This document shows, one piece after another, positions 7,588 through 38,840 of a stretch of 64,000 nt of DNA. Below the pieces are notes generated by a model, which had not been told where the DNA came from, did not search any database, and worked only from the letters and a program-made list of their open reading frames with translations. The DNA lies in NCBI RefSeq assembly GCF_011045215.1, contig NZ_CP049201.1; one strand, given 5' to 3'. Position 1 is the first letter of the stretch, and the number at the start of each line of letters is the position of its first letter. This DNA is from Escherichia coli. GTDB taxonomy: Bacteria > Pseudomonadota > Gammaproteobacteria > Enterobacterales > Enterobacteriaceae. Position numbers and translations under genes: made by a program.

Positions 7588-7663
7588 GGCCCTTTAGCTC
7601 AGTGGTTAGAGCAGGCGACTCATAATCGCTTAGTCGCTGGTTCAAGTCCAGCAGGGGCCACCA
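7588..7663 (+). tRNA. ileY: tRNA-Ile (anticodon CAU, lysidine-type; ileY/ileX-like)
   Basis: 76-nt sequence GGCCCTTTAGCTCAGTGGTTAGAGCAGGCGACTCATAATCGC...GGGGCCACCA with CAU in the anticodon loop and encoded CCA end; recognised as the E. coli minor tRNA-Ile. Confidence 0.93.
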
Positions 7664-10390: not shown

Positions 10391-10699
10391 AAACGATTAT
10401 GTAAATCATTTTATTTTGCCAACGGCCTCATTGTCGAAAGAAAAGAATACGCCCGTGTTTCCTGAATAGATTGACTTTTTTATCCAACCACACTTCAGCG
10501 CACTGCGTTTAAAAAATGCCTCATTCTTATGCGGAATATCATCATTTCATCATGATGTCTTTGATGAGCGGTGAACACAATACACTTGCGCTGTCTCTTC
10601 AGGATGAATCCCCTGGTCTGGTGCCTGTGGGCTGATGTTGCAGCAAAGCTAAGGTCGCTTAAACGCTACTCAGTATTCACTTTTCAGAGGATGAAATTT

Positions 10700-13600
10700 A
10701 TGAACAGGACCAGTCCCTATTATTTTCGCCGCTCAGTACTTTCCTTATTGATATCTGCCTTAATATATGCCCAGCCTGGAGAGGCTGCTTTCACATCAAT
10801 CGTTACTGGTATCGTAAATGGTGAAACTGTTGATGGTGATCAAATAGTAGATGAACGTGGTACAACTAATGATATTCATATCATTAATCACGGCCGCCAG
10901 ACTGTAATTGGTGGGATGTCTAATGGAAGTATTATTGAAGTTGGTGGACAACAAGATGTAGCAAGCCATAATGATTATCAGGGGCAAGCTAATAATACAA
11001 TCCTTCATGGGGGTGCACAGGTAATTTATAATGGCGGGAATTCTACCGGTACGATAATCGAGAGTGGTCATCAGCAAGTTTATAACGGTGGTACCAGCAA
11101 TGGCACGATAATCGAGAGTGGCAATCAGTACGTTTATAAAGATGGTACCAGCAATGGCACGATAATTAAGAATGGTAATTCAGTCGTCGAAGGAGGGAGG
11201 GCGAACGGGACTGTCATCGATGGTGGTAAACAAACAGTAACAACTCAGGGATATGTTGACGGTACGACGATAAATAAGTCCGGTTATCAGGACATCATGC
11301 AAGGAAGTCAGGCAAAGAATACGACAATAGATGGGGGGCGGCAGTATGTGGACTCGAGTTTTGTAGAAACCACCATCATCAAAAATGGGGGCGATCAAAG
11401 AGCATATAAGAGCCATGCGCTGAACACTACGATAGATGGAGGTCGACAGTATATTGATTCAAGTACTGCACAAATAACCACCATTAAAAATGGAGGAACG
11501 CAACAATTAATTGCCAGCCAGGCTATGATCACCTCGATTGAAGGGGGAATGCAGACGCTGGAAAGTTCGTCAATGGCGTACAATACCACGATCTATTCTG
11601 GCGGGAAGCAAATTGTTGATAACACCAGCACCTCGGATGTTATTGAAGTTTATTCCGGTGGCGTGCTTGATGTTAGTGGTGGTACGGCAACAAATGTTAC
11701 CCAGCACGATGGTGCAATTTTAAAAACAAACACTAACGGTACGACGGTGAGCGGTACGAATAGTGAAGGTGCATTCTCCATCCACAATCACGTGGCAGAC
11801 AATGTGTTGCTGGAAAACGGTGGTCATTTAGACATAAACGCATATGGTTCGGCAAACAAGACGATTATTAAAGATAAAGGAACAATGTCAGTTTTAACCA
11901 ATGCTAAAGCTGATGCGACCCGAATAGATAATGGCGGGGTTATGGATGTTGCCGGAAACGCGACCAATACCATAATTAATGGTGGTACACAGAATATTAA
12001 TAATCATGGTATTGCCACGGGCACTAATATCAACAGTGGAACGCAAAATATCAAGAGCGGCGGGAAAGCTGACACGACAAATATATCCTCCGGGAGCCGG
12101 CAGATTGTTGAGAAAGATGGTACGGCAACTGGCAGCAATATTAGCGCTGGAGGCTCGCTGATTGTCTATACCGGCGGTATTGCACATGGGGTTAACCAGG
12201 AGACGGGCAGTGCTTTAGTTGCCAACACGGGTGCAGGGACTGATATCGAAGGATACAACAAGCTCTCTCACTTCACTATTACCGGAGGGGAGGCTAATTA
12301 TGTTGTGCTGGAAAATACCGGCGAACTGACGGTAGTGGCTAAAACCTCGGCGAAAAATACTACCATTGATGCTGGCGGTAAGCTGATTGTCCAGAAGGAG
12401 GCTAAAACAGATAGCACCAGACTTAATAATGGCGGCGTTCTGGAGGTTCAGGACGGTGGTGAGGCTAAGCATGTTGAGCAACAATCCGGCGGCGCATTAA
12501 TTGCTTCCACGACCTCCGGAACACTTATCGAAGGAACCAACAGTTATGGTGATGCTTTCTACATCAGGAATTCAGAAGCTAAAAATGTAGTGCTGGAAAA
12601 CGCTGGCTCATTAACCGTCGTCACTGGTTCCCGGGCAGTTGACACGATTATTAATGCCAACGGCAAAATGGATGTTTATGGAAAAGATGTTGGCACTGTA
12701 CTCAATAGTGCTGGCACCCAAACAATATATGCCAGTGCCACTTCTGATAAAGCAAATATCAAAGGTGGCAAGCAAACGGTATATGGTTTAGCCACTGAAG
12801 CAAATATCGAAAGTGGTGAACAAATTGTTGATGGTGGGTCAACAGAGAAAACACACATCAATGGTGGCACGCAAACCGTTCAGAATTATGGTAAGGCAAT
12901 CAATACCGATATCGTCTCTGGCCTACAACAAATTATGGCAAACGGGACAGCGGAAGGTTCCATTATTAATGGGGGTTCACAGGTAGTTAATGAGGGCGGT
13001 CTGGCTGAAAACTCGGTGCTTAATGACGGCGGCACACTCGATGTGCGGGAGAAAGGCAGCGCAACGGGGATACAGCAGAGTAGCCAGGGCGCTTTGGTTG
13101 CAACCACCAGGGCGACGCGGGTCACAGGAACACGCGCGGATGGCGTCGCGTTCAGCATCGAGCAGGGTGCGGCGAACAATATCCTGCTGGCAAATGGCTG
13201 CGTGTTAACCGTGGAGTCAGACACCACTTCCGCCAAAACACAGGTCAATACGGGCGGGCAGGAGATCGTCAAAACAAAAGCCACTGCGACAGGCACGACG
13301 CTCACCGGCGGCGAACAAATCGTCGAGGGTGTGGCGAATGAGACAACGATTAACGACGGTGGAATACAAACAGTTTCGGCTAACGGAGAGGCAATAAAAA
13401 CAACGATCAATGAAGGCGGTACGCTGACAGTTAACGATAATGGCAAAGCAACAGATATCGTCCAGAACAGCGGTGCCGCTCTCCAGACGAGCACGGCTAA
13501 CGGTATTGAAATCAGCGGTACTCACCAGTACGGCACTTTTTCCATTTCCGGCAATTTAGCGACCAATGCGTTGCTGGAAAATGGCGGTAATTTATTGGTA

Positions 13601-15433
13601 TTAGCAGGCACCGAAGCTCGCGACTCCACGGTTGGCAAGGGTGGTGCAATGCAAAACCTGGGTCAGGACTCCGCCACAAAGGTTAACTCTGGCGGGCAAT
13701 ATACCCTTGGGCGGTCAAAAGATGAGTTTCAGCCTCTGGCCCGGGCAGAAGATCTCCAGGTCGCTGGCGGGACGGCAATCGTCTACGCAGGTACGCTGGC
13801 GGATGCATCGGTCAGTGGCGCGACAGGAAGCCTGTCGTTAATGACGCCACGGGATAATGTTACGCCAGTTAAACTCGAAGGGGCGGTCCGGATTACCGAT
13901 AGCGCGACATTAACTCTGGGAAATGGCGTCGATACAACGCTTGCCGACCTGACGGCTGCCAGCCGGGGCAGTGTCTGGCTTAACAGCAATAATTCCTGTG
14001 CAGGTACCAGCAACTGCGAATATAGAGTAAACAGTTTGCTACTCAACGACGGTGATGTTTATTTATCAGCACAAACAGCAGCGCCTGCCACAACTAACGG
14101 TATCTACAATACGCTGACAACCAATGAACTTTCCGGTAGCGGTAATTTCTACCTGCATACCAACGTTGCAGGCTCCCGGGGCGATCAACTGGTCGTCAAC
14201 AACAACGCCACTGGTAATTTTAAAATCTTTGTTCAGGATACCGGCGTCAGCCCACAGTCTGACGATGCGATGACGCTGGTGAAAACAGGGGGAGGGGATG
14301 CTTCGTTTACGCTGGGCAATACCGGCGGTTTCGTTGATCTTGGGACCTATGAGTATGTCCTGAAAAGTGACGGCAACAGCAACTGGAACCTGACCAATGA
14401 TGTCAAACCCAACCCGGATCCCAACCCAAATCCGAAGCCAGATCCAAAACCAGACCCAAAACCGGATCCGAAACCAGACCCGACTCCCGATCCAACGCCG
14501 ACACCCGTTCCGGAGAAACGCATCACGCCTTCTACGGCAGCCGTACTCAATATGGCTGCAACATTACCGTTGGTATTTGATGCTGAGCTAAACAGTATTC
14601 GCGAGCGGTTGAACATAATGAAAGCGAGTCCACACAACAATAATGTCTGGGGGGCGACGTATAACACCCGTAATAATGTCACCACCGATGCGGGTGCCGG
14701 GTTTGAGCAGACGCTGACCGGAATGACAGTGGGGATCGACAGCCGTAATGATATTCCTGAAGGAATTGCCACGCTGGGCGCTTTTATGGGTTATTCCCAT
14801 TCACATATCGGTTTTGATCGCGGAGGACATGGCAGTGTGGGCAGTTATTCTCTGGGCGGCTATGCCAGTTGGGAACATGAAAGTGGTTTCTATCTGGACG
14901 GTGTCGTGAAGCTGAACCGTTTTGAAAGTAACGTAGCCGGTAAAATGAGCAGCGGTGGAGCCGCCAATGGCAGTTACCACAGCAACGGGCTGGGCGGTCA
15001 CATTGAAACCGGGATGCGATTTACCGATGGTAACTGGAACCTGACGCCGTATGCATCGTTAACGGGGTTCACCGCTGATAACCCCGAATATCATTTATCC
15101 AATGGCATGAAATCGAAATCAGTCGATACCCGCAGTATATATCGTGAACTGGGGGCAACGCTGAGTTACAACATGCGTCTGGGGAACGGTATGGAAGTTG
15201 AGCCGTGGCTGAAGGCGGCTGTGCGCAAAGAATTTGTCGATGATAACCGGGTGAAGGTGAATAATGACGGTAATTTCGTCAATGATTTGTCGGGCAGACG
15301 TGGAATATACCAGGCAGGTATTAAAGCCTCATTCAGCAGTACGTTAAGCGGGCATCTCGGGGTGGGGTATAGCAACGGTGCCGGTGTGGAATCCCCGTGG
15401 AACGCGGTGGCTGGTGTGAACTGGTCGTTCTGA
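10700..15433 (+). CDS. ypjA: AIDA-I-type adhesin-like autotransporter (ypjA-like)
   Basis: ORF 10571-15433; probable start ATG 10700 (MNRTSPYYFRRSVLSLLISALIYAQPGEA signal peptide); passenger built of ~19-aa imperfect repeats (NGTIIESG.QQVYNGG...), PNPDPNPNPKPDPKPDP linker, C-terminal beta-barrel ending ...AGVNWSF. Confidence 0.85.
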   Translation: MNRTSPYYFRRSVLSLLISALIYAQPGEAAFTSIVTGIVNGETVDGDQIVDERGTTNDIHIINHGRQTVIGGMSNGSIIEVGGQQDVASHNDYQGQANNTILHGGAQVIYNGGNSTGTIIESGHQQVYNGGTSNGTIIESGNQYVYKDGTSNGTIIKNGNSVVEGGRANGTVIDGGKQTVTTQGYVDGTTINKSGYQDIMQGSQAKNTTIDGGRQYVDSSFVETTIIKNGGDQRAYKSHALNTTIDGGRQYIDSSTAQITTIKNGGTQQLIASQAMITSIEGGMQTLESSSMAYNTTIYSGGKQIVDNTSTSDVIEVYSGGVLDVSGGTATNVTQHDGAILKTNTNGTTVSGTNSEGAFSIHNHVADNVLLENGGHLDINAYGSANKTIIKDKGTMSVLTNAKADATRIDNGGVMDVAGNATNTIINGGTQNINNHGIATGTNINSGTQNIKSGGKADTTNISSGSRQIVEKDGTATGSNISAGGSLIVYTGGIAHGVNQETGSALVANTGAGTDIEGYNKLSHFTITGGEANYVVLENTGELTVVAKTSAKNTTIDAGGKLIVQKEAKTDSTRLNNGGVLEVQDGGEAKHVEQQSGGALIASTTSGTLIEGTNSYGDAFYIRNSEAKNVVLENAGSLTVVTGSRAVDTIINANGKMDVYGKDVGTVLNSAGTQTIYASATSDKANIKGGKQTVYGLATEANIESGEQIVDGGSTEKTHINGGTQTVQNYGKAINTDIVSGLQQIMANGTAEGSIINGGSQVVNEGGLAENSVLNDGGTLDVREKGSATGIQQSSQGALVATTRATRVTGTRADGVAFSIEQGAANNILLANGCVLTVESDTTSAKTQVNTGGQEIVKTKATATGTTLTGGEQIVEGVANETTINDGGIQTVSANGEAIKTTINEGGTLTVNDNGKATDIVQNSGAALQTSTANGIEISGTHQYGTFSISGNLATNALLENGGNLLVLAGTEARDSTVGKGGAMQNLGQDSATKVNSGGQYTLGRSKDEFQPLARAEDLQVAGGTAIVYAGTLADASVSGATGSLSLMTPRDNVTPVKLEGAVRITDSATLTLGNGVDTTLADLTAASRGSVWLNSNNSCAGTSNCEYRVNSLLLNDGDVYLSAQTAAPATTNGIYNTLTTNELSGSGNFYLHTNVAGSRGDQLVVNNNATGNFKIFVQDTGVSPQSDDAMTLVKTGGGDASFTLGNTGGFVDLGTYEYVLKSDGNSNWNLTNDVKPNPDPNPNPKPDPKPDPKPDPKPDPTPDPTPTPVPEKRITPSTAAVLNMAATLPLVFDAELNSIRERLNIMKASPHNNNVWGATYNTRNNVTTDAGAGFEQTLTGMTVGIDSRNDIPEGIATLGAFMGYSHSHIGFDRGGHGSVGSYSLGGYASWEHESGFYLDGVVKLNRFESNVAGKMSSGGAANGSYHSNGLGGHIETGMRFTDGNWNLTPYASLTGFTADNPEYHLSNGMKSKSVDTRSIYRELGATLSYNMRLGNGMEVEPWLKAAVRKEFVDDNRVKVNNDGNFVNDLSGRRGIYQAGIKASFSSTLSGHLGVGYSNGAGVESPWNAVAGVNWSF

Positions 15434-18352: not shown

Positions 18353-19357
18353 TCACAATCTTCCGCCGTTTTTGACTGTTGCAGATATACTTTTAGCAGG
18401 TTTTAAATGCCTGGAGATTTCTTTCTGTTCTCGACGGATTTTGTATGAATTAATTTCTTCATAATCCTTGTGTTTATTTATTTTTGATAAATCAACCAAG
18501 AGATTATTTCTTATCATCCACTTTACAATTCGCTTGTTGATATCTTTATAGAGAGGGCCGCCTTTATATTTATAGAAGTGAATATCATGAATTTCACTGA
18601 TGAAATCAAGTATGGATAAGATTTCTTTATAATCACCAATGTAACTGTTAATGGTGAAATGGTCTTTATTAAGTTCTATTTTGAATCCATGTTCAGAAAG
18701 GTAATACAAGAAAAAGGCTGAGTCGAGATCACAAAAATCTACATGCAGCGTTCTTCTGTCAAATTTATCAATATGCGAGAGAATGATATCATGTAATTCA
18801 TAATCATATACATTTTCAATAAATCCTTTCCCTGAATGATCAATTTGATTGACATTGCATCCAGCATCTATTGCTACGGATAAAACTTCCGGGGAAAGGG
18901 GCATGAAGAGAATATTCATTCCTTTTTTATCGATGTGATTTATATCACAACCAGCATTAATTAATTCTGTCAATCCTTCAGCATTCCTGTAATGTTCAAA
19001 AATGCATGTGTAGCCATTAGTATCCGTATGCGAGGTGTCTAAACCCAGTTCAATCAGTTTCTTCAGTATTTCTGGATTTTTTTGATGAAAGAGCGCATTT
19101 TGCCCATGTCCGTTGATATGGTGTATATTAATTCCATAACTGAGCAGGCAATCCATGGCTTCCAGGGTTCTGCAGGCAAAAATGGCATTGTTGCCGTTAC
19201 TGTTAACAGCATTGATGTCATAGCCTATTTTTAAAGCTTTCTTTATATCATCAGGTGATCTTGCATTGAAGAATGATTCAGAAATGGCAAGGTCTAATGC
19301 CTTTTCTAATAATCCCTTTTGTAATAAGGATATGACTAATTCCATAAACACCCCCAT
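18353..19357 (-). CDS. Ankyrin-repeat protein (paralog 1)
   Basis: 334-aa ORF with repeated G.DIN..D..G.N.LF blocks (~33-aa periodicity) and a C-terminal region shared with ORF 31629-32573 (..VKWMIRNNL../..IKWFIRNDI..). Confidence 0.7.
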   Translation of the reverse strand: MGVFMELVISLLQKGLLEKALDLAISESFFNARSPDDIKKALKIGYDINAVNSNGNNAIFACRTLEAMDCLLSYGINIHHINGHGQNALFHQKNPEILKKLIELGLDTSHTDTNGYTCIFEHYRNAEGLTELINAGCDINHIDKKGMNILFMPLSPEVLSVAIDAGCNVNQIDHSGKGFIENVYDYELHDIILSHIDKFDRRTLHVDFCDLDSAFFLYYLSEHGFKIELNKDHFTINSYIGDYKEILSILDFISEIHDIHFYKYKGGPLYKDINKRIVKWMIRNNLLVDLSKINKHKDYEEINSYKIRREQKEISRHLKPAKSISATVKNGGRL

Positions 19358-24151: not shown

Positions 24152-24907
24152 TTAACTCGTTTTTTCGCTGCTTTCCACTGTCGGGGGATTTTTCCTCAGG
24201 GACTCTCCCTGAAGGACCACTCTGTGTGAGTTATGTACCAGTCTGTCCAGGATGGCATCTGCTGTTGTTGGGTTCTCCATCAGACCATGCCATTTATCTA
24301 CCGGGAACTGGCTTACCACTATCGTGCTGCTTTGTCCGTAACGATCCTCTGTGATCTCCAGAAGGTCATTACACTGGGCGTTACTTAACTGTTCCAGCCC
24401 CAGATCGTCCAGGATTAGAACCTGTATTTTTTGCAACTGTTTCAGATATTTCAGCCAACTGCCATCAACACGTCCCTGAGCCAACTGTTCCAGTAATCGC
24501 CCGGTTCTACAGTACCGGACGCTGTATTTCTGTCGACATGCCTGTTCGCCCAGCGCATTGGCTATCCAGCTCTTACCGCATCCTGTCGGACCGGTTATCA
24601 GTAGGTTTTTCCTGTGGATTATGTAGTGGCCGTTCAGCAGTTCCCTCATCTGTTCAGCCCGCAGACCTCTTGAGGCCGGATAACGCAGCCCTTCCGGTGT
24701 TGCCTGATATTTCAGGCAGGCATTTTTTCTCAACCGTGCCACACGACTGTTTTCTCTGCTCAGAAGCTCGTCATCAACCAGCAGTGTCAGCCTTTCCTCG
24801 AACGACAGTTCGTCGTAAGTCTGAGGCGTTTCCCGTTGCCGTATCAGGCTCCCGGCCATCGCCGGGAGTTTCAGTTGGGTCAGTTTGTTTAACAGATTAT
24901 CACTCAT
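24152..24907 (-). CDS. istB: IS21-family helper ATPase IstB
   Basis: ORF 24152-25150; likely start MSDNLLNKL (24907); Walker A GPTGCGKS and typical IstB layout; overlaps the end of istA. Confidence 0.85.
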   Translation of the reverse strand: MSDNLLNKLTQLKLPAMAGSLIRQRETPQTYDELSFEERLTLLVDDELLSRENSRVARLRKNACLKYQATPEGLRYPASRGLRAEQMRELLNGHYIIHRKNLLITGPTGCGKSWIANALGEQACRQKYSVRYCRTGRLLEQLAQGRVDGSWLKYLKQLQKIQVLILDDLGLEQLSNAQCNDLLEITEDRYGQSSTIVVSQFPVDKWHGLMENPTTADAILDRLVHNSHRVVLQGESLRKNPPTVESSEKTS

Positions 24908-24923
24908 ACGGTTGTTCCTTCTG

Positions 24924-26489
24924 TCAGTGGTAGTAGCCAGGACCACGCAGGTTTTCATGCTCTGAAGCATATGCCGGATGTTGTTCGCCCTGGCGGGATA
25001 ACGGAAGCTCAACGTTATCCCGATGATGACGCAGCAGATTGTCGATAAAGCGTCTGTCCGGGGCGTTATAGTGCAGGGCAACGTAACAGGCCTTTTCCAG
25101 CCGTTCCGGGCCGTATTTTTTCTGAAGTGCCAGCAGACCCAGGACTGCACGGTAAGCCAGCTCCGGATGGGGTTTGGCTTTCAGCATGGATTCAACCACC
25201 CGGCCTGTGGACGGACCTGTACGGTTTCCCTGCTCGATAAGGCGTTCCGGTGTCCATGTCCCATGCCGCCGGTGGCGTTCTGGCATGTGAAGCGGATTGG
25301 TTGTGTGTTTATATTCATGTGTGCTGCGCGGATGTTGCGCCACACACTGCCCCTTGTGCCAGAGCTGTACCACCGACTGCCCCACCTTCAGTGACAGACG
25401 CTGACCGACCAGTTCGTGTGGAACGGAGTACCAGTGACGGGCATATTCAACGTGGTAGTCAGGGCCAACCTTCACGGCTTTGTATTCCGTGTATTCATAA
25501 GGCTCCAGAGGCAGCGGAGAGAGTGCTGGTGCATCCAGCATGCGGAAGCGTTCTGCGCGGGTTTGATTACCGTATCCCTTCATTGGTCGGTTATTCATGT
25601 CCGTCAGCAACTCCCGAAGGCGTGCATTCAGCGCCCTGAGCGTGTGGAAGGTTTCATTACGGATGCGGGCAAGAAGCCATCGCTCGACGATGAGGACGCC
25701 GTTTTCTGCTTTTGGTTTATCTTTAGGTTTGCGCGGGCGGGCCGGGATAATAACCGTGCCATAGTGCTCAGCCAGCGCCTGATAACTGTCGTTGATGACA
25801 GGCTCATAGCGATCGGCTTTTTTCACTGCGCTTCTGAGGTTATCGGGGATGAGCAGCTTCGGTACGCCGCCCAGGAAGGTCAGGCAACGGCTGTGGGCAT
25901 TTAACCATGACATCATGTCCTGACCTTCGCACGCTTCAACATAGGTATAGTTGGACGCCCCCATTACAGCCACGAAGATTGCCACGCGGCGTATCTCTCC
26001 GGTGTCCGGATTAATAACAGGGACCGTAGGACCACAGAAGTCGATAAAGAGCTTTTCGCCAGCACGATGCTCCTGTCGCATGGAGAGGCGTCGCGTTTTT
26101 TTCCACTTCCGGTAGCAACGGCAGAAGTGTGAGTATCCCATCGCTTTGTCACCCGCCTGTGCCTTGTATTCCATCCACAACAGTTGGCGCGTCACGCCAG
26201 GTTTTCTCATTTCCGTATCGAAGTACAGCATGTCAGGCATAACAAGCTCTGACGCAGAGGTGTCTTTGGGCGGGAAAATGAGTTTCTCCAGCGTGTCATG
26301 GGATATATCAGCAGGTAATGGCCATGACAGAGAAGAGGCTTTGAAGCGGGCAAGAACCTCAAAAACGGTTGAGGCGCTGATGTGTAACGTCAGTCCGATA
26401 CAACGGTTAGTCAGCTTCTTATCGAACTTGAGCTGAAGGATCTTAAAACAAGTTTCCATAGTGCTCCTGGATTTTCTCTTTTTGGACAT
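24924..26489 (-). CDS. istA: IS21-family transposase IstA
   Basis: ORF 24924-26591; likely start MSKKRKS (26489); N-terminal HTH followed by integrase-like catalytic core; paired with istB. Confidence 0.8.
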   Translation of the reverse strand: MSKKRKSRSTMETCFKILQLKFDKKLTNRCIGLTLHISASTVFEVLARFKASSLSWPLPADISHDTLEKLIFPPKDTSASELVMPDMLYFDTEMRKPGVTRQLLWMEYKAQAGDKAMGYSHFCRCYRKWKKTRRLSMRQEHRAGEKLFIDFCGPTVPVINPDTGEIRRVAIFVAVMGASNYTYVEACEGQDMMSWLNAHSRCLTFLGGVPKLLIPDNLRSAVKKADRYEPVINDSYQALAEHYGTVIIPARPRKPKDKPKAENGVLIVERWLLARIRNETFHTLRALNARLRELLTDMNNRPMKGYGNQTRAERFRMLDAPALSPLPLEPYEYTEYKAVKVGPDYHVEYARHWYSVPHELVGQRLSLKVGQSVVQLWHKGQCVAQHPRSTHEYKHTTNPLHMPERHRRHGTWTPERLIEQGNRTGPSTGRVVESMLKAKPHPELAYRAVLGLLALQKKYGPERLEKACYVALHYNAPDRRFIDNLLRHHRDNVELPLSRQGEQHPAYASEHENLRGPGYYH

Positions 26490-26625
26490 TGACGTCTCCA
26501 CTGGTTTAAACACGGCAATGGAGACTGTGGTGAAAAGAGTTAATTCCCGGAGTGACTGGCGAATTCCAATCAATGATCGGAAGTATGCCAAATCGTGATC
26601 GATTGTGATGCCAACATATCCTTAC

Positions 26626-28100
26626 CCATAAATCCGAGTGATGTTATTCTGTTGATAAATTAACCATAATTTAGAGGAACTATGGAAAACTGGGTTATTA
26701 AGGAGCTGGAATCTCTGAATGTTGGTGATATCAGGCTCGAAAAGCGAATAAAGCACGTTCTCAGTGTGCTTAGCCGTTCACCAAAGGAAAGTATTCCCGT
26801 ATCCTGCCGTACCTGGAGTGAGACAAAAGCTGCTTATCGTTGCTTTTCCAGTGATAAAATTTCAGCCGATAAAATCATGGCTCCCCATAAGAAAAATATC
26901 ATCGAAAGGACTAAACAGTTTAAACGGGCTCTGGTTTTACAGGATACGACTGAACTAAATTATTCTGGTCAAAAAAAGAAACAGGGCGTCGGTCCCAGAC
27001 GACATGAAAATGAGCGAGATTTGTTTATTCACCCTCAATTGGTTATAAGTGATTCAGGTATTTGCTTAGGGGTTTATGATGATTATCAATGGTTCAGAAA
27101 AGAACTCAAAACTCAGAAACAAAGTCGTAAAGAAATAACTAATGATTCACTTCACAGGAAACATATCAGTGAGAAAGAAACAGGACGGTGGATAGAAGGA
27201 TATAAAAAAGCAACAGAACTGGCTAGGTCCTGTCCTGATACCCAGATAATTTCTGTTTCAGACCGTGAAGGTGATATTTACGACCTCTTTGAGAGTGCAG
27301 AAAATGAAAGTGGGATAAAGGCTGACTGGCTCGTAAGAATGAAGAGCATTAACCGGGCTATACTGAATTCATCAGGAAAAAGAGACTCATTACTCCTGAA
27401 TGAAAAAATGATGCAGATTTTGCCACAGCAGATAATTGAGTTTACCCTTCCGGAAGGACGAGGACAACCTTCCCGCAAAGTCCAGCAGGAGCTACGCTTA
27501 GCAAGGTTGACGCTACATCCACCCACCGGTCGAAGAGGAAAGTTACGTTGTTCTCCGGTAACGGTAACTGTATTACTTGCAAAGGAAATAAATGCTCCAG
27601 AAAGTGTCCAGCCATTAGTATGGTGGCTAATGAGTAGTGTACCTCCAGAAAAGCTGACGGAACCCGCACAGCTTATTCAATGGTATTTATTACGCTGGCA
27701 GATTGAAGTTTTCTTTAAGGTATTAAAAAGCGGATGTCAGGTTGAGAAATTACAACTTGAGACATTTGAACGCACAAGGAACTGTCTGGCCTTATACCTT
27801 ATAATCTCATGGAGAATACTTTATCTTAGCTCATTGTATAAAATGGTTCCGGAGGAACCCTGTGATTTAATTTTCGAAAAGAAAGAATATGAGTATCTCT
27901 GGATATTGGTAGAGAATACGCCTCCACCTGAAAACATACCGAATATAAGAACGGCGGTTTTAATGCTTGCAAGATTAGGAGGATATCTGGCAAGAAAAAA
28001 TGATTCGCCTCCAGGCCCTAAGACTATATGGTCAGGATTAACACAATTAATGCTGTCAATTAATGCCATAGAAATAGCCCAGAAAACTTGTGGGTAAGGG
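26626..28100 (+). mobile_element. IS4-family insertion sequence nested in the IS21-family left end
   Basis: Single transposase ORF flanked by imperfect terminal inverted repeats (CCTTACCCATAA... / ...TTGTGGGTAAGG); both flanks carry IS21-type repeat motifs; boundaries approximate. Confidence 0.6.
26682..28097 (+). CDS. IS4-family DDE transposase
   Basis: 471-aa ORF containing the IS4 Y-x2-R-x3-E-x6-K signature (YLLRWQIEVFFKVLK). Confidence 0.85.
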   Translation: MENWVIKELESLNVGDIRLEKRIKHVLSVLSRSPKESIPVSCRTWSETKAAYRCFSSDKISADKIMAPHKKNIIERTKQFKRALVLQDTTELNYSGQKKKQGVGPRRHENERDLFIHPQLVISDSGICLGVYDDYQWFRKELKTQKQSRKEITNDSLHRKHISEKETGRWIEGYKKATELARSCPDTQIISVSDREGDIYDLFESAENESGIKADWLVRMKSINRAILNSSGKRDSLLLNEKMMQILPQQIIEFTLPEGRGQPSRKVQQELRLARLTLHPPTGRRGKLRCSPVTVTVLLAKEINAPESVQPLVWWLMSSVPPEKLTEPAQLIQWYLLRWQIEVFFKVLKSGCQVEKLQLETFERTRNCLALYLIISWRILYLSSLYKMVPEEPCDLIFEKKEYEYLWILVENTPPPENIPNIRTAVLMLARLGGYLARKNDSPPGPKTIWSGLTQLMLSINAIEIAQKTCG

Positions 28101-28576: not shown

Positions 28577-28897
28577 TTACTTATCAATGACCTGCCAGCC
28601 ATCATCCGTTTTGATCAGCCTGACAGCCGCTGTGCGTTTTTCGTTATCGACAACAGCTGTTACATTGCATTTATAGCTTTTATCCGATAGTTTTTCGCAG
28701 TCATGCTTTTTGACAGATTTTAATTCCCGCAGTGCGTCTTTCGGGACATCTTTACCTGCTATGGATTTAACGATGGCATTCGTCTGCTCCATGACCTTAT
28801 TCATCGCAGTGTAAATATCCTGCTCAGACGGTTCACCGGTACAGCCACTCAGCAAAAAAATGGACGCAATGAGTGTGGTAAATGCATATGTTTTCAT
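28577..28897 (-). CDS. Small lipoprotein (106 aa)
   Basis: N-terminal signal peptide with lipobox LLSGC (MKTYAFTTLIASIFLLSGCTG). Confidence 0.6.
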   Translation of the reverse strand: MKTYAFTTLIASIFLLSGCTGEPSEQDIYTAMNKVMEQTNAIVKSIAGKDVPKDALRELKSVKKHDCEKLSDKSYKCNVTAVVDNEKRTAAVRLIKTDDGWQVIDK

Positions 28898-28923
28898 AAA
28901 ATAATCCCAGACTGTAGAGTACG

Positions 28924-29322
28924 TTATTGAATAAGGCCGGTTTTCATCTTGCTGTTGTTTTCAGAGATCGTCCACTTACTGACCGTTTCGCCTTTAAATT
29001 CGATTTCCAGCGTTTTGGCCTGCGTCTGTGAACCGCCTGTCAGCAACCCGACCACTGGAATGAATGTGGTGGCATCAAACTGATTGTTATCCATCGAATA
29101 AGTCCATTCTTCATTGCCACTATCAAGTGTAGTTTTGGTTTCGGGCTCACCTAATGCGGTAATGATTTCTGATTTCGTTGTTTTATTTTTTATAATTTTC
29201 GACTGCAGACTTTGTGCTGTTTCTTTTTTTAGATGCTGGTTGCCTGATGTTGAACAACCAGAAATAAGGAAAGCAGAAATAAAAAACACAGAAATCATGA
29301 ATCTGTTCATAAGTTCTCTCAT
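28924..29322 (-). CDS. Small lipoprotein (132 aa)
   Basis: Signal peptide with lipobox LISGC (MISVFFISAFLISGCSTSG); alternative start MNRFMIS possible. Confidence 0.6.
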   Translation of the reverse strand: MRELMNRFMISVFFISAFLISGCSTSGNQHLKKETAQSLQSKIIKNKTTKSEIITALGEPETKTTLDSGNEEWTYSMDNNQFDATTFIPVVGLLTGGSQTQAKTLEIEFKGETVSKWTISENNSKMKTGLIQ

Positions 29323-29359
29323 ATTAATTTTTTATGTTTGCGGTGGTATGAAATTAATA

Positions 29360-29635
29360 TCACCGTATAAAAACAACTCTGTCTGCATATTTCTTTTTAA
29401 TAATGCAGATAAGAATAATGACGCTGGCAAAAAACGTAATGACTGAGACAGGAGTGCTGCCGGTCAATGAAAATACTAACCAGGCGAGAGCTAATGCCAC
29501 GAATTGAAACAGGAATGCCACACTGAGCGGACTCTCACCGTAGGCGACTTTTGCATGGCAGCCTTTGCAAATCCGCACGCCGTGCGGGCTTTGTGTAAAG
29601 CAGAAGGGGCAGCTAATCGTTTTATTATCCATCAT
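29360..29635 (-). CDS. Zinc-ribbon membrane protein (91 aa)
   Basis: N-terminal CPFC...CKGC four-cysteine motif followed by two hydrophobic segments. Confidence 0.5.
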   Translation of the reverse strand: MMDNKTISCPFCFTQSPHGVRICKGCHAKVAYGESPLSVAFLFQFVALALAWLVFSLTGSTPVSVITFFASVIILICIIKKKYADRVVFIR

Positions 29636-29820
29636 GACTCCGTGGCCTGATTTAAGGTGATGTATTTTTGAACATTTTCGATGAATGATCCGCTTTAGTA
29701 AAATTGCTTGTACCGATCGATGGATCTCTGTTGATAGGTTATAACTATCATAACAAGATTATCGATCTATATAAACGATCAATATTTTATTGACTATCAC
29801 TAAAATATGGATTAGTTAAC

Positions 29821-31050
29821 TTATGGTGCAGGATAGGGGTTATTTTTAACTAATTGTTCTTTAATGGGATTTGTTGTCATGGAATGACAGGGTGTCAGAA
29901 GATGCAGGTGCAGGATTTGGTGGAAAGGATGTGCAGTGGCATGTAACAGAGACATGCCCCTGCGCCTGAGAAGTGCCACAATATGGCCGAGCAATACAAA
30001 CCACGAATGCAGACGACGCTGGCGGGGTATCTGACGAGCTGTATTGTGCAGTTTGCTCCTGAGTTGAATGACACCCACTGTTTCCTGTTGTCTTTCCAGA
30101 CGAATTTTTTCTTCAAGCTGAAGGATTTTCTCCAGAATCGTTTCCCGGTTTGCAGCCTGTTCTTCAGGCTCGCATGATGGCACTGGCACTGGCACTGGCA
30201 CTGGCACTGGCACTGGCACTGGCACTGGCACAGTCTGCTGTTGCTCTTTTTTCAGTAAAGCCAGGTGCTCTGGTGTAAAATCAATCTGTGTTTGCAGAGA
30301 AGACCAGCCATACTTTTTTCCAAGCTGAGACGCTTTAAAGGCAATGCCCTGGTACTGAAATGAAAAGCCGTTCATTTTTCCCGTTGAGGCGATATTAGGT
30401 TTACAGTTCACGCCTTCCTTTTCCAGCATAGTGATAAAAGTCAGCAAATCAGGGCGGCCGGTTAACGCATTATCAATCAGGCTCTGCAGAGTGGACCTGG
30501 GGCAGGGAGTTGTCGTTCTTTCAGCCATCATCAGCTCGTTGCGGGAAGGCTTTCTTTTCTCCTGACTATGACTACTGATTGCAGATGTGGTTTGAGTGAG
30601 TTTGTGGACTTTCTCCAGCTCGCTGATAATCCGGGTACTGATAAGATTTTCATTTTTCCCAAGGTACAGCTTCCCACCGACCATGTTAATTCTGTTAGCT
30701 ATTATATGGATATGCTGCCCGTCCGAATCATCGTGCATGATATAGCAGCGAAGATGGGTTTCAGTGAATCCCATCCGGGTCATATAATCGTCAGCGAATG
30801 CCGCCCATTGTCTGACTGACAGTGTTTCTCCCTTTGGCAGGCGAAGCGAATTATGCCAGACAGGTTTGGCGACACCGGGGCGCAGTAGTCTTGTGCCTTC
30901 AAATTCACTGATAAGTTCAGCAGCAGTGCTTCCCGTCATGTTGCCACCGATAATATAAGGCGTGATTTTGTGGTGAGATCCTGACTTAAGGCTATAGAGA
31001 ACAACACCTGCGAACTGTTTACCCCGCTTTATTTTCTGCATACCTTTCAT
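29821..31050 (-). CDS. Mobilization relaxase (MobA/MobL-like) with internal (VP)n linker; C-terminal tail of doubtful authenticity
   Basis: Three-histidine relaxase-type motif HDDSDGQHIHIIANR; start overlaps the mobC-like stop (ATGA at 31047-31050); low-complexity tail after the VP repeat. Confidence 0.65.
   Translation of the reverse strand: MKGMQKIKRGKQFAGVVLYSLKSGSHHKITPYIIGGNMTGSTAAELISEFEGTRLLRPGVAKPVWHNSLRLPKGETLSVRQWAAFADDYMTRMGFTETHLRCYIMHDDSDGQHIHIIANRINMVGGKLYLGKNENLISTRIISELEKVHKLTQTTSAISSHSQEKRKPSRNELMMAERTTTPCPRSTLQSLIDNALTGRPDLLTFITMLEKEGVNCKPNIASTGKMNGFSFQYQGIAFKASQLGKKYGWSSLQTQIDFTPEHLALLKKEQQQTVPVPVPVPVPVPVPVPVPSCEPEEQAANRETILEKILQLEEKIRLERQQETVGVIQLRSKLHNTARQIPRQRRLHSWFVLLGHIVALLRRRGMSLLHATAHPFHQILHLHLLTPCHSMTTNPIKEQLVKNNPYPAP
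30178..30231. repeat. Perfect hexanucleotide tandem repeat (TGGCAC)x9 inside the relaxase gene
   Basis: Read directly; encodes a run of 8-9 Val-Pro dipeptides on the minus strand. Confidence 0.95.
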
Positions 31051-31451
31051 TGAGTTGGCTCCAGAAAGGTTGATGGAATAAGGTGATCCCTGAGAGTTTT
31101 GATTTGTCTGCGCAGGGCGAAGAGTTCTGTACGGGTCAGTTCGCTGTCAGGGCTTTTGCTGTCGAGATGATTCAGCAGGCGGTTTAAATGCTGTGAAAGG
31201 TTGCCGAGTTTAATCCATGCTTCACGATTGATTTCAGGTAATACCGGTGGGAGTTTGTTGAGGGATGCCATTCTTAGCCATTCCCCTTTTTTATAAGGGC
31301 CTCTTTTACTATCGAGAATAGATAATTCTTCTTCGTTTAACCGAACGCTGACGCAGTGAGTTCGAACTTCATTAGGTGAATATTTTGCTGTATGGAATTT
31401 ACCTCTTCTTGAGCGTCTTGATAGATCTTCTTTACTTTCATTTTTATGCAT
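31047..31451 (-). CDS. MobC-like relaxosome accessory protein
   Basis: 134-aa basic protein immediately upstream of and overlapping the relaxase gene; typical mobC-mobA arrangement. Confidence 0.5.
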   Translation of the reverse strand: MHKNESKEDLSRRSRRGKFHTAKYSPNEVRTHCVSVRLNEEELSILDSKRGPYKKGEWLRMASLNKLPPVLPEINREAWIKLGNLSQHLNRLLNHLDSKSPDSELTRTELFALRRQIKTLRDHLIPSTFLEPTQ

Positions 31452-31628
31452 ATCTAACCTTTTTTAAAATGTGTTCATGATCTACAGTTAGCGCATTGGT
31501 AAAATAAGTCAAGGCAGTGTCGAAATTTATAAATAAGATAGGTGGAGCAGATTGCTAATTAGGTAATCTGCTCTGGGTAAAAATAGGGTTCATATTAAAT
31601 TCATTATGACAGTGAGGAGGGGCGGAGG

Positions 31629-32573
31629 TTACAATCTACGTTTTACTGGCATTAAAGAGATTGTTTGTTTCATAATTTCGCTAAGTTTCTTTTTCTCATG
31701 TTCTGCTATATATTTACAAATCTCATCATGTCGAATATGCTGTTCCAGTTGTTTTTTATCCATTTTGATGTCATTGCGGATAAACCATTTAATGGTTTCA
31801 ATGTCCCCGCGTAAATCATAACCTCGCAGTACAATATGGCGAAAATGTGTGTTGCTGATATCTGTCTTCTTCTTTAGTTCACTGAAGAAAGAGCTCATTT
31901 CATTTTCATTGGCACTTAGATAAACCTGGCAGTTATCAGAGATAGTAAAGTTAAGGTTTTTCTTCTGAAGCAAATCCATTATCTGCAGACTTTCGCTGTT
32001 GAGGTAGTTGAAAATTACTGGACTGCTATCCTTCATACTAATATGACGAATGAGCATTTTGGCTTTGAAATCGCCTAATGAATAGCAAATTTCAAAAATA
32101 CCGTGACCCTGGTTATCTCTGTGGTTTATATCGCAACCGGCCTGTACCATCAAATCAAAGATAGAGTGATTTTTTACGTAAAAAAGTATTGTTCTTCCGC
32201 ATTTATCCACATTGTTGACATTAATTCCAGCATTGATCAGGGTTTTGCAACAGGATATATTATCAGCTAACGAGCATAAACAGGTTTGGCCGAGACCATT
32301 TTTATGGTGTATATCTACGCCGGAATCAATCAATTTTTTCAGTATGTGAGGATTTCGCTGGTTAAACAAAACATTGTGACCATAGTTGTCAGCATGGTTA
32401 AAATCTATTCCTGCTTTAACCAGAGTGTCAATCATTCTTGGGTTTTTACAGTAAAACAGTATATTTCTTCCAAACGAATCCAGTGTATTAATATCGGAGC
32501 CTGCATTAATGCAAGCCTGAATGTCTTTTGGAGTTTTACAAGAGAGTAATGTATTTATTGCGTTGTTATTCAT
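31629..32573 (-). CDS. Ankyrin-repeat protein (paralog 2)
   Basis: 314-aa ORF with ankyrin-like repeats (GSDINTLDSFGRNILFY..., GIDFNHADNYGHNVLF...) and the shared C-terminal region; 16 bp downstream of ORF 32589-33029. Confidence 0.7.
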   Translation of the reverse strand: MNNNAINTLLSCKTPKDIQACINAGSDINTLDSFGRNILFYCKNPRMIDTLVKAGIDFNHADNYGHNVLFNQRNPHILKKLIDSGVDIHHKNGLGQTCLCSLADNISCCKTLINAGINVNNVDKCGRTILFYVKNHSIFDLMVQAGCDINHRDNQGHGIFEICYSLGDFKAKMLIRHISMKDSSPVIFNYLNSESLQIMDLLQKKNLNFTISDNCQVYLSANENEMSSFFSELKKKTDISNTHFRHIVLRGYDLRGDIETIKWFIRNDIKMDKKQLEQHIRHDEICKYIAEHEKKKLSEIMKQTISLMPVKRRL

Positions 32574-33389: not shown

Positions 33390-34371
33390 AATCTTTTTTT
33401 TGTAATTGCTTTACAGGTAACTGGTTGAAGCGTTGTTCGTAAAACCTTTTGCTCTCTCTGTAATTTGTCCTGGAGGATTTCTTCATAAAAGTAGCGTTCT
33501 TTTAGCGATTCTATATCAACTTTTATATCATTACGTATTAACCATTTAATTAGCAGTCTTCCTGCATAGTGCGTCAGTAGATATGTACTGCTTATGTAAA
33601 ACCAAACATGACTAATGTCTGTCAGCTTCTTTAGTTGTAAAATTAATTTTTTAGCGTCGGCATTTGTTGGTGTTATGATACATTTATCACTTATCTCAAA
33701 TTCATTTTTTGTTTTATAAGCAATGACAACAGCTCAATTGATTTAAATGTAATGTTCTTGAGTACAATTTTTGAACTATTTGTAAGGTGAATATTACGGA
33801 TAAAAAAGCGCATGTAGTTATCATTTTTAGATTCCCAGTGCGTATATTTACCAACTATGCTATTATTTTCTGACTGCCAGTGATCGAATGCTGTCTGTCC
33901 ACTTATATTTTTATGATTAATGTCGCAACCAGCCTCAATTAGTGCATCGTACACATATCCTTCAAATGGAATGAAAAGAAAGGAATTGCCATATCTATCT
34001 TTGGTATGGATATCTAGTCCTGCTTTGATAAGATATTTTACTAACCCTGGTGAAACATCAATATGTTGAATCGCAAGGGTGCCTGACTTATTCCGGTGGT
34101 TAACATTAATACCATTGCTGACAAGAAGTTCCACTGTTTCAACATTTTGAGCATAGAATAATGCATTATTACCGTCATTATCCAAGTGGTGAATGTCAAT
34201 GTCAGCGTCAATCATTGCCTGTATAGCTTCAGGTACATTACAGGTAAAAAGAGCAGTTTGACCTTTACTATTGCACATATTTATATCCATGCCAGCCTTA
34301 AGGCAACGAAGGACACCATTTTTAGACTTTACACGGAATAGGTTATTTTTATTATTTTCTCTTGATATCAT
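33390..34371 (-). pseudogene. Ankyrin-repeat paralog 3, frameshifted at a homopolymer tract
   Basis: 226-aa ORF stops at 33691-33693; the paralog-consistent C-terminal region (...KNEFEISDKCIITPTNADAKK...LLIKWLIRNDIKVD...) continues in another frame; shift maps to the T6 tract at 33705-33710; 3' end approximate. Confidence 0.55.
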
Positions 34372-35600: not shown

Positions 35601-38600
35601 TCATTTTCCTAATTCTCCAGCTAAAAGTTCAGCCTGCTTCAAAACAGTCTCTGTGGCGAGCAATGACATATCAGGCGGATAACCATATTTTTTGAGCAGA
35701 CGTTTTACCACCACGCGAATTTTTGCTCTTGCTGCTTCTTTCACTGTCCAGTCAAGACTGACATTGTTGCGGATAGCCTCCGTAAGTACGACTGCCAGTT
35801 CTCGTAGTTTTTCCTTTTCCATTAACTCGCGAGCACTGTCGTTATCTGCAACAGCAGAATAGAAGGCATATTCATAAGCGCTGAGGTTTAACTGGCTGGC
35901 AAGGCTGTCAGATTCCTGGATAGTCTTGGCAAGCTTGATTAGCTCATCAATTACCTCCGCTGCTGTCAGTACCTTGTTCTGGTAGCCATTGATTGCAGAG
36001 GTCAGCATATCAATCAGTTTTTTGCCTTGGGTGATACTTTGATTCGAGCGAACTTTAATCTCGTCAGAAAGCAGTTTTTTAAGCGTTTCCAAAGCAATAT
36101 TTCTGTGTTGGTAATCCTTCATTTCCTGAAGGAATTCTTCAGAAAGAACGGAAATATCTGGCTTTTGTATCCCAGCAGCGTCAAAAATATCAACAACTTT
36201 ATCGGTAACCAGAGCCTGATCGATAGTCTGTTTTACCCGAACTTCCAGACTGTCATTGTGTTCTTCTTCTGATCCGTCTGAGTTTTCAGTAAATTTATTC
36301 AGTCTGGCTTTTACTGCCTGGAAGAATGCTACTTCGGGTGCCGCTTCCATTGCTTTATCGTGCGGTGTCGCCAATGCAAATGCCTGCGACAAGGCTGCAA
36401 CCGCAGCCAGGAAACGCATTTTACCTTTACCGTTATCCAGCCCTAAAATATGGTTTTCTGATTCAAGAATAATTGTCAGGCGTTGTGAAGTAGTTGCGGC
36501 AAAGTAAGCTTTGTAATCGTAGCCATGCATCATGCCTTCCAGGATTTCCAGCTTTTCCTGCATGAGCGTTACAGCTTCTTCCTGAACCTCAGCAGGATCT
36601 CCACGTCCACCTGCATCAGAGTAAAAGGAGAGGGCTTCTTTTAAATCAGAGGCAATGCCCAGATAGTCAACAACCAGACCGCCTATCTTATCTTTATACA
36701 CACGGTTCACACGGGCAATTGCCTGCATGAGGTTGTGGCCTTTCATTGGTTTGTCGATATACAGCGTATGCATGCTGGGAGCGTCGAAGCCGGTTAACCA
36801 CATATCACGCACTATCACCAGTTTCAGCTTGTCGTCGTCATCCTTCATACGATTAGCCAGAACCTGACGTTCTTTTTTTGTGGTGTGGTGTTTAGCGATT
36901 TCTGGTCCGTCAGCAGCAGAAGAGGTCATGACGACTTTAATCACGCCATCATTTAGATTATCGCTGTGCCATTCAGGTTTTAACTCTATGATTTCTTTAT
37001 AAAGTTCAGCAGCAATACGACGGGACATGGTGACAATCATGCCCTTGCCATGATCGGCATTAGATTTTAAGCGCTGTTCAAAGTGCTGAACCATATCCGC
37101 CGCAATAGCTTTAATACGTTTTGAACTGCCAATCAAACCTTCGATTCTGGCCCATTTAGACCGTTCTTTCTGGGTAAGCGTCAGCTCGTCTTCGTTAAAC
37201 TCATCGTCGAAGTCTTCAATTAGCTGGCGACCTTCGTCACTGATGGCAATTTTGGCAAGACGGCTTTCATAGAAGATACGCACGGTTGCACCGTCTTCTA
37301 CGGCCTGTGAGATATCGTAGATATCAACGTAGTTACCAAAAACAGCAGGTGTGTTTACGTCCGTTTTTTCTATGGGGGTTCCGGTAAAGCCAAGATAGGT
37401 AGCATTGGGCAAGGCATCACGCATATATTTGGCAAAGCCGTAAACGGTGCGTTTACCTGTTACGTTGCCTTCGCTGTCTTTCACGTCAACTTCTTTGGCG
37501 CTGAAACCGTATTGTGAACGGTGGGCTTCATCAGCGATAACGACAATATTGGTTCTGTCTGACAACAACTCATAGATATTGCTGCCATCATTAGGCTGGA
37601 ATTTTTGAATAGTGGTAAACACCACACCACCAGAGGCTACGCGCAAATATTCTTTGAGTTCTTCCCGGTTGTCGGCCTGTTTTGGTGTCTGACGAAGTAG
37701 CTAGGTCGCGGAAGAGAACGTACCGAATAGCTGATCATCCAAATCGTTACGGTCAGTAATCACAACAACTGTCGGATTATCCAGCGCCAGCACAATTTTC
37801 CCGGTATAAAACACCATCGAAAGCGATTTACCGGAACCCTGAGTATGCCAGACTACGCCCGCTTTGCGATCTCCGGTTTTTTGCGCATTAACAAGATCTT
37901 TACTGTTACGTCCCTGCTGGCGCAGTGCCACTTCGGCAGAGGGGGAGTCCGCATTCACCGCTGAGGCACGAATAGTGGAAAGAACTGCTGCATTGACCGC
38001 GTAGTACTGGTGATAAGCCGCCATTTTTTTAACAGTACGGATACTGATAATCCCTTTGCTGTCTTCATGTTTGCTGGCCTCAAACACGATAAAGTGGCGG
38101 ATCATATCCAGCAGCGTTACAGGATTAAGCAACCCCTGTAATAAAACTTCAAGCTGTGGTTGGGTACTGGTGGCTTGCGTTTTACCGTTAGCAGTTTTCC
38201 ACGTCATATAACGACTGAAATCGGCAGAAACCGTCCCCGCTTTGGCTTCCAGCCCGTCAGATATCACATTAAAAGCATTGTAGTTAAACAGACCGGGGAT
38301 TTGGTTCTGATAGGTTTTAATCTGATTATAGGCACCTGTTACCGTAGCATTTTCGTCAGCGGCATTTTTAAGTTCGATAACGACTAATGGCAGGCCGTTG
38401 ATGAATAAAATAAGATCAGGTCGGCGGGTATGATTGCCTTCTTTGATGGTGAGCTGATTAATGACCAGAAATTCATTATTAGTGGGATCGTTAAAGTCGA
38501 TCAGGCAGGCCAGCTCTCCTTGTGTATTACCATCCTTACTGACTTCGATATTGATCCCTTCGGTCAACAGGCGATGAAAGGCCAGATTGTTTGCCATTAG

Positions 38601-38840
38601 ATCAGGTGTGCTGATCTGCATCACCTGTTTCAGGGCTTCCTCACACTTCTGTTCACTAAGGTGCGGATTCAGGCGTTGTAGAGCAATACGCACCTTATCT
38701 TCAAGGATAACCTGCTGATAGCTACGTAACGGATTGATTCCACTGGGTTCAATGTCCGGGCCGTAAACATACTCATAGCCCAGCCCTTGCAGGTGCTCAA
38801 TTGCCATTACTTCAATATCGGATTCGGTCATCTTTGCCAT
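35601..38840 (-). pseudogene. hsdR: Type I restriction enzyme R subunit HsdR interrupted by an in-frame amber codon
   Basis: ORFs 37701-38840 (N-terminal, helicase motif I GSGKS) and 35601-37646 (C-terminal) are in the same frame, separated by a single TAG at 37701-37703 (...[33 protein letters not shown]...). Confidence 0.8.

Follow-up and report, generated by a model that had tools for sequence, protein, structure and literature searches.

A length-variable Val-Pro array in the coding frame of a relaxase gene, between a conserved N-terminal module and a helical tail, in an ssrA-associated island of Escherichia coli

The stretch analysed here, hereafter the window, comprises 64,000 nucleotides of Escherichia coli contig NZ_CP049201.1 (RefSeq assembly GCF_011045215.1), and carries in a genomic island beside ssrA a minus-strand gene for a relaxase whose coding sequence contains nine tandem copies of the hexamer TGGCAC. 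The parts of this gene on which the argument turns are listed below, with positions counted along the window and, in brackets, the evidence behind each; dN/dS is the ratio of nonsynonymous to synonymous divergence.

29821..31050, minus strand: relaxase gene, 409 amino acids plus stop codon (open reading frame, Pfam PF03432, RefSeq naming, catalytic residues)
30232..31050, minus strand: conserved N-terminal module, residues 1-273, with a predicted HUH relaxase fold (about 1-150) and a second folded domain (170-272) (extent of homology, AlphaFold, dN/dS)
30178..30231, minus strand: in-frame variable-number tandem repeat (VNTR), (GTGCCA)9 = (Val-Pro)9 (sequence reading, Tandem Repeats Finder; 4-18 copies elsewhere in E. 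coli between the same flanks)
29821..30177, minus strand: subfamily-specific C-terminal tail, residues 292-409, with predicted helices at 305-339 (the long one), 343-363 and 368-384 and a disordered end (in-frame conservation, dN/dS, motif, AlphaFold)

The array can be read directly in the sequence as an error-free (TGGCAC)9 at 30178-30231, and Tandem Repeats Finder returns the same interval (period 6, 9.0 copies, 100% matches, score 108), so that the coordinates given in a preliminary description, made from the letters alone, are exact. Chance is excluded as the source of a 54-base perfect array, the expectation in 64 kb of random sequence being effectively zero, and a regular-expression scan of the whole window found no other perfect hexamer array of at least three units. 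On the minus strand the array is (GTG CCA)9 and encodes (Val-Pro)9, residues 274-291 of the 409-residue protein; its earlier description as a Val-Pro-encoding repeat within a relaxase gene is borne out both by this frame and by the Pfam relaxase domain in the same open reading frame. The hexamer TGGCAC is also identical to the -24 hexamer of sigma-54 promoters (consensus TGGCAC-N5-TTGCW), and the units might therefore be protein-binding sites in the DNA, with their coding role secondary. We regard this as extremely improbable, as TTGCW follows no unit at the required spacing (the bases there are CTGGC within the array and GCTGT past the last unit), whole ATGCCA/TGGCAT arrays in other strains destroy the hexamer and keep the X-Pro pattern (X being the variable partner of each proline), and what is conserved is the proline codons. 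A sigma-54 promoter at the array was rejected on the same two counts, the missing -12 element at the right spacing and the TGGCAT substitutes of other strains.

The number of units differs widely between genomes. A 354-base query laid across the repeat matched about 130 complete E. coli genomes, and the arrays were read directly in 21 E. coli loci that were fetched; counts outside these 21 come from the spans of the BLAST matches. Direct reading gave 4 to 18 perfect units between unaltered flanks, and the spans of the query ranged from 324 to 408 bases, every deviation from 354 being a multiple of 6, a rule that holds over about 125 complete E. coli genomes. Change by whole units with the frame kept, which had been expected of a perfect hexamer, is thus what the genomes display. 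The alleles read directly were of the following types:

KEQQQT-(VP)n-SCE, the type of the window: n = 4, 6, 7, 8, 11, 13, 14, 17 and 18, with 9 in the window itself
AP-(VP)n, the type of locus L017: n = 4, 7, 8, 9 and 13
Met-Pro arrays (unit ATGCCA): VP MP VP (MP)10, and VP (MP)14

The exact allele of the window was absent from the complete E. coli genomes, among which the best match carries 8 units. In the L017-like type, counted by span in 59 genomes, there are 9 length classes between 4 and 13 units (7 units in 17 genomes, 8 in 11, 6 in 7, 9 and 11 in 6 each, 12 and 13 in 4 each, 10 in 3 and 4 in a single genome). The Met-Pro arrays, which reach (MP)14, are those of strains B4103-1 (locus L012) and MB06022 (locus L020); here a single-base variant of the unit, ATGCCA, has spread over whole arrays with the proline retained. 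All of the full-length genes that were read, 18 from E. coli and one from a Salmonella homologue, are intact and encode 399-427 amino acids, and because all 19 remain in frame at 4-18 units the locus does not behave as a phase-variable switch.

Differences of this kind might be errors of assembly or sequencing in a low-complexity tract: assemblies are known to go wrong at short tandem repeats, and the one within-clone difference, described below, rests on single assemblies. This explanation appears very unlikely to us. The differences are all exact multiples of 6 and each array reads cleanly, genomes from unrelated laboratories agree within sets of related-looking strains and differ between such sets, and an array of 24-108 bases is far below the length that any read type struggles to span.

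From the pattern of variation across these sequences we infer that replication slippage is the mutational process. Pure arrays vary in length and interrupted ones stay fixed, which matches the prediction of slipped-strand mispairing. Specifically, the interrupted allele GTA CCT GCA TCT GTG CCA TTA ACA GTG CCA GTG CCA, with two perfect units, has one length in all 15 of the genomes that carry it, from varied hosts and countries, and is the commonest form among the relaxase protein clusters. The filling of whole arrays by the variant ATGCCA is likewise the kind of spread that turnover by slippage would yield. The Salmonella homologue, at 68.6% amino-acid identity and a synonymous divergence above 1, has a pure (GTGCCA)11, and the purity of an array in so deeply diverged a homologue suggests that it is continually homogenised or repeatedly regenerated. 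At the shortest distance, two near-clonal pig isolates from one study (Res13-Lact-PER12-33-A and Res13-Lact-ER02-39, each with a single assembly), share the chromosomal coordinate at which the match begins, and over 2,957 bases a single unit is all that separates them.

The gene in which the array lies is assigned to the relaxases by its sequence. The 409-residue open reading frame matches Pfam PF03432 (MobA/VirD2 relaxase) over residues 32-151 with 80.8 bits against a gathering score of 24.6 (E 1.4e-22), and in every fetched E. coli locus RefSeq names it relaxase/mobilization nuclease. In an alignment of 71 homologues H115 never varies, while Y19, H106 and H113 each reach a conservation of at least 90%, and the relaxase of the window has all four (IMHDDSDGQHIHII). 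From established knowledge of the family we take Y19 to be the catalytic tyrosine and H106, H113 and H115 to be the metal-binding histidine triad (H..HxH); with the tyrosine and the histidines all present, the enzyme looks intact as far as its sequence tells. NCBIfam models gave sub-threshold relaxase matches only (TraI_MobP, NF041893, 56 bits against a cut-off of 250; MbpB, 51 against 400), scores by which the protein is a relative of the TraI/MobA(P) conjugative relaxase equivalog NF041893, yet no member of it. The AlphaFold model has a mean per-residue confidence (pLDDT) of 83.9, with values above 90 across most of residues 1-272 and a confident prediction over 1-148. Its top Foldseek match in the PDB is 2NS6, the relaxase domain of MobA from R1162, with a probability of 0.98 but at a weak E of 4.4e-3 and a target-normalised template-modelling score of 0.40; a sequence search of the PDB with the protein found no relaxase.

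Homology across the wider family covers the N-terminal part of the protein. A HMMER scan of 1.84 billion cluster representatives (50%-identity clusters) gave 1,810 matches at E of at most 1e-10, and in the best 150 of these the homology stops at about query residue 252-262, in proteins of 268 to 1,062 amino acids. The conserved module on this sequence comparison is residues 1-260, joined to differing C-terminal parts across lineages. Relaxases of small plasmids are 42-49% identical over residues 1-253 by tblastn, with MobC genes annotated under or adjoining the match, and near-identical relaxases are on record from Enterobacter hormaechei, Klebsiella, Salmonella, Cronobacter and Citrobacter.

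The repeat separates the conserved relaxase module (1-273) from the subfamily-specific helical tail (292-409). In the AlphaFold model residues 273-304, which include the repeat, have no secondary structure and a pLDDT that drops to 46, with helices following, and the sole non-relaxase NCBIfam match of the protein is a weak one (E 0.067) of residues 272-299 to a TonB proline-rich region. The same junction is occupied by (Ala-Pro)n in two of the closest cluster representatives. More broadly, an X-Pro stretch is present in all of 120 relaxase protein clusters, the shortest having 2 units, and proline is retained at every second position of the linker, with V, M, A, E or L as its partner. We take such a linker, with proline at every second residue, to be extended. 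A polyproline-II-like chain measures 0.31 nm per residue, at which the spacer would span about 2.5 nm with 4 units, 5.6 nm with 9 and 11 nm with 18. The wide range of unit numbers within intact genes suggests that linker length is largely tolerated, and most of the variation is probably near-neutral.

The preliminary description also suspected that the annotated C-terminus is artefactual or decayed, in which case the true protein would end at or near the repeat. The tail does have a composition biased to H, L and R, its last 25 or so residues are modelled as disordered, and family-wide homology ends before the repeat; moreover its Nei-Gojobori dN/dS of 0.26-0.52 exceeds that of the N-terminal part (0.10-0.15 for residues 1-160, 0.10-0.21 for residues 161-273). 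These values are nonetheless far under 1, and synonymous divergence (dS) in residues 292-409 equals that elsewhere in the gene and is not depressed. All 118 C-terminal residues are in frame, free of stops and frameshifts, in each of the 18 full-length E. coli genes as well as in the Salmonella homologue, which aligns through to the very end of the relaxase. Relatives of about 50% identity (P0122-P0127) share the tail motif RW(I/L)xx(I/V)P(F/Y)...(K/R)(K/R)xGxSLL(K/H), and a profile built on the tail recovers P0123, which was left out of the seed, at E 3e-8. The helices of the tail are predicted at pLDDT 64-86, only the final stretch being disordered. A decayed or artefactual tail is therefore highly improbable, and this part of the description does not stand; the sequence comparison instead marks the tail as coding sequence under purifying selection, if apparently more relaxed than in the N-terminal part. 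An invariant repeat number together with a conserved C-terminus, the pattern which that description held would tell against it, is found in one half only: the C-terminus is conserved, and the repeat number, at 4-18 units, is not constant.

An overlapping gene within the tail, comparable to mobB inside mobA, was considered as a source of its composition and rejected. The +1 frame is open for 93 codons in some alleles and for 55-64 in others, dS is not depressed, and in the +2 frame of the tail no start-bounded open reading frame of at least 60 amino acids was listed; as the alternative frames are not kept open across alleles, an overlapping gene fails to explain the tail. The conserved, arginine-rich tail is compatible with docking to the coupling protein of a helper or with a translocation signal, a reading that draws on general knowledge of type IV secretion substrates.

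Divergence along the 2.9-kb region is uneven. Strain KFu015 matches the window without a single difference from the repeat across the accessory gene that precedes the relaxase, and over the final 300 bases of the relaxase gene the two differ at 23-38 positions per 100 bases; in several other alleles the number of differences per 100 bases rises from 0-6 to 15-22 where the comparison passes the repeat. Compared with loci L003-L018 over 29720-30370, the relaxase gene of the window is a mosaic in which divergence jumps from 0-6 to 15-38 per 100 bases at the flanks of the repeat and about 150 bases downstream. Such abrupt jumps indicate that recombination has shuffled the N-terminal and C-terminal parts.

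The array is a real in-frame coding VNTR, showing a known kind of variation, in a gene that is not decayed. We consider it probable, at roughly 80%, that it evolves by replication slippage, through which whole units are added to or dropped from the pure GTGCCA tract, and that most of the resulting variation in length is near-neutral; since the unit is two codons, each event would add or remove one X-Pro dipeptide and would never break the frame. Each step would then lengthen or shorten an extended spacer that joins the DNA-processing module to the helical tail, and both flanking parts of the protein stay under purifying selection while the length of the linker ranges widely. Several points weigh against this account. 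Copy numbers beyond the 21 loci read directly come from the span lengths of BLAST matches, and slippage itself is deduced from the pattern of variation. The lone within-clone difference, that of the Res13 pair, might be an assembly error in one genome, and most sets of strains that seem related by name or study have one length (three MRE162 genomes, five of CX04-CX21, two of Z217, the pair ABW_A32/33, and 19AR/23AR/24AR), so that the locus varies from lineage to lineage and is not hypermutable over the time scale of an outbreak. The extended conformation proposed for the linker leans on general knowledge of X-Pro sequences and on a low-confidence stretch of the model, and the near-neutrality of its length is an assumption.

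In place of near-neutral variation, the array might be a tuning or contingency locus, in which the number of X-Pro units sets the reach of the relaxase to the partner of its tail (such as the coupling protein in the type IV secretion system of a helper plasmid) and so adjusts the efficiency of mobilization or the choice of helper. The width of the range and the persistence of pure arrays over deep divergence, including the Salmonella homologue, are in keeping with such a role, as are the presence of at least 2 X-Pro units in every one of the 120 clusters, the retention of proline at alternate positions whatever its partner, and the conserved, arginine-rich tail. On the other hand, the commonest public allele is the short interrupted one, which is invariant in length, the distribution of lengths resembles a broad stepwise-mutation spread without discrete favoured states, a 6-base unit is incapable of on/off switching of expression, and these data hold no link between length and phenotype. 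We regard tuning as unlikely. Its most explicit form, in which the Val-Pro/Met-Pro array is a fast-evolving length dial between a module bound at the origin of transfer (oriT) and a docking tail, re-matching the island to helper conjugation systems, is a conjecture to which we give rather little weight.

A coding VNTR of this kind has parallels in several known systems. The 6-bp loci CVN014, CVN015, CVN016 and CVN017 used in E. coli multiple-locus VNTR analysis (MLVA) also have short perfect units that vary by whole copies, preserve the frame as multiples of three and serve for typing; unlike them, the relaxase array belongs to an accessory island that about 2.4% of complete genomes carry. It is not itself a known MLVA locus in the set compared here, as the 20 primers for ten generic E. 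coli MLVA loci (PMC8143711) all fail to match the window, even with 3 mismatches. Alternate prolines between functional parts, with no predicted secondary structure, also characterise the (Glu-Pro)n(Lys-Pro)n region of TonB, the Ala-Pro linkers of the E2 component of 2-oxo acid dehydrogenases and engineered (XP)n spacers. In contrast to these, the partner residue in the relaxase is hydrophobic (Val or Met) and not charged, the linker is encoded by a pure microsatellite that still changes length, and it is known here from sequence and model. With MobA of IncQ plasmids (R1162/RSF1010) and the MOBP/MOBQ relaxases of small mobilizable plasmids, the protein shares by sequence an N-terminal HUH relaxase domain with its tyrosine and histidine triad, and a modular join to a differing C-terminal part, but it has a helical tail of 118 residues instead of a primase, is chromosomal at ssrA, and has a microsatellite at the junction. 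A literature search of partial coverage found no description of a relaxase linker that varies in repeat length, or of the ssrA island.

The surroundings of the gene include three further features:

31047..31451, minus strand: upstream gene, sharing 4 bases with the start of the relaxase gene, putative NikA/MobC-like (weak Pfam NikA-like match, constant position in all loci, MobC in plasmid relatives)
46808-48118: tyrosine integrase open reading frame, adjoining ssrA, with the same layout in locus L002
48204-48566: ssrA

The relaxase region is present in 135 of 5,426 complete E. coli genomes (about 2.4%), at 136 places, all of them chromosomal. A plasmid origin was rejected: the region had no megablast match among 72,556 plasmids, and none of the 136 E. 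coli places is on a plasmid. The plasmid collection contains one full-length match only, a linear Salmonella record of 3.6 kb that bears a plasmid label. In the closest genome, 19AR1724, the region belongs to an island of about 28 kb between the gab/glaH genes and ssrA-smpB, containing a tyrosine integrase beside ssrA, a serine recombinase, two ParB-like genes, a type I restriction-modification system, three ankyrin-repeat genes, a SIR2 gene and the relaxase pair, and its annotation lists no conjugation-machinery genes. Similarly, the RefSeq annotation of the L002 island from glaH to ssrA shows no type IV secretion or coupling-protein gene, the open reading frames of the window, several of them hypothetical, having been scanned in part. 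On the other side of the island in the window lies the ypjA autotransporter gene. An integrase at ssrA and a relaxase pair without annotated conjugation machinery is the organisation of an integrative mobilizable element, and by this gene content the island appears to be one.

The first gene of the relaxase pair probably encodes a relaxosome accessory protein of NikA/MobC type, its Pfam NikA-like match being weak (E 7.9e-4, 20 bits against a cut-off of 27). In the intergenic sequence upstream of it, at 31545-31573, lies the inverted repeat GAGCAGATT-N11-AATCTGCTC, a candidate part of oriT. This repeat is missing in the divergent alleles L008, L016 and Salmonella L001; near the candidate site L008 and L016 have another inverted repeat (GGTATAC...GTATACC), and L001 an approximate one only. 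The oriT nick motif YATCCTGY occurs 15 times where 7 matches were expected, and the intergenic region upstream of the accessory gene has none of these.

Downstream of the relaxase, at 28577-29635 on the minus strand, are three small open reading frames whose position is conserved in all loci. Two encode putative lipoproteins, one of which matches F-type TraV weakly and below threshold (E 0.0014), and the other, at 28924..29322, is named a SEN1984 family lipoprotein by RefSeq in one genome; the third encodes 91 amino acids with a zinc-ribbon-like N-terminus. Just past the downstream end of the relaxase block, at 24152-28097, the island contains an IS21-family pair (IstA-like 24924..26591, IstB-like 24152..25150) and an IS4/Tn5-like transposase (26682..28097), and at this position the annotation of the L002 island lists no such transposase genes. 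A SIR2-family protein and three ankyrin-repeat proteins are encoded at 16112-17464, 18353-19357, 31629-32573 and 33691-34371, with one ankyrin gene immediately upstream of the relaxase pair; E. coli does not commonly carry ankyrin-repeat genes. The gene for the type I R subunit (35601-38840, minus strand) is split by a TAG at 37701-37703 into open reading frames 37701..38840 and 35601..37646. In 19AR1724 the corresponding codon is CAG and the gene is a single one of 3,240 bases; judged from the split reading frame, the restriction subunit is probably inactive in the strain of the window.

Two observations concern sequence outside the island. The ypjA/EhaD-like autotransporter open reading frame (10571..15433) has coding tandem repeats at 14407-14495 and 11051-11166, one of period 12/24 that is imperfect (74-78% matches) with the proline-codon-rich unit GATCCAAAACCA, and the other with a 54-base unit in 2.1 copies. 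In a G+C-poor stretch at 7588-7663 ARAGORN predicts a tRNA-Met with a CAT anticodon, which may instead be a lysidine-type isoleucine tRNA, such as is known from this region of E. coli K-12.

For annotation and clustering, relaxases that differ in repeat number only should be treated as one gene, and the 3′ part of the relaxase should not be labelled a pseudogene remnant. For strains with the ssrA island, the array is a clean polymorphic marker with at least 11 length classes. Its 4 to 18 X-Pro units also form a natural allelic series of spacer lengths with which to ask whether the distance between the domains affects mobilization. If length does matter, slippage would be a new route by which mobilizable elements adapt to their helpers, and a length dial of this kind would make horizontal transfer itself, and not surface antigens, the target of a contingency mechanism.

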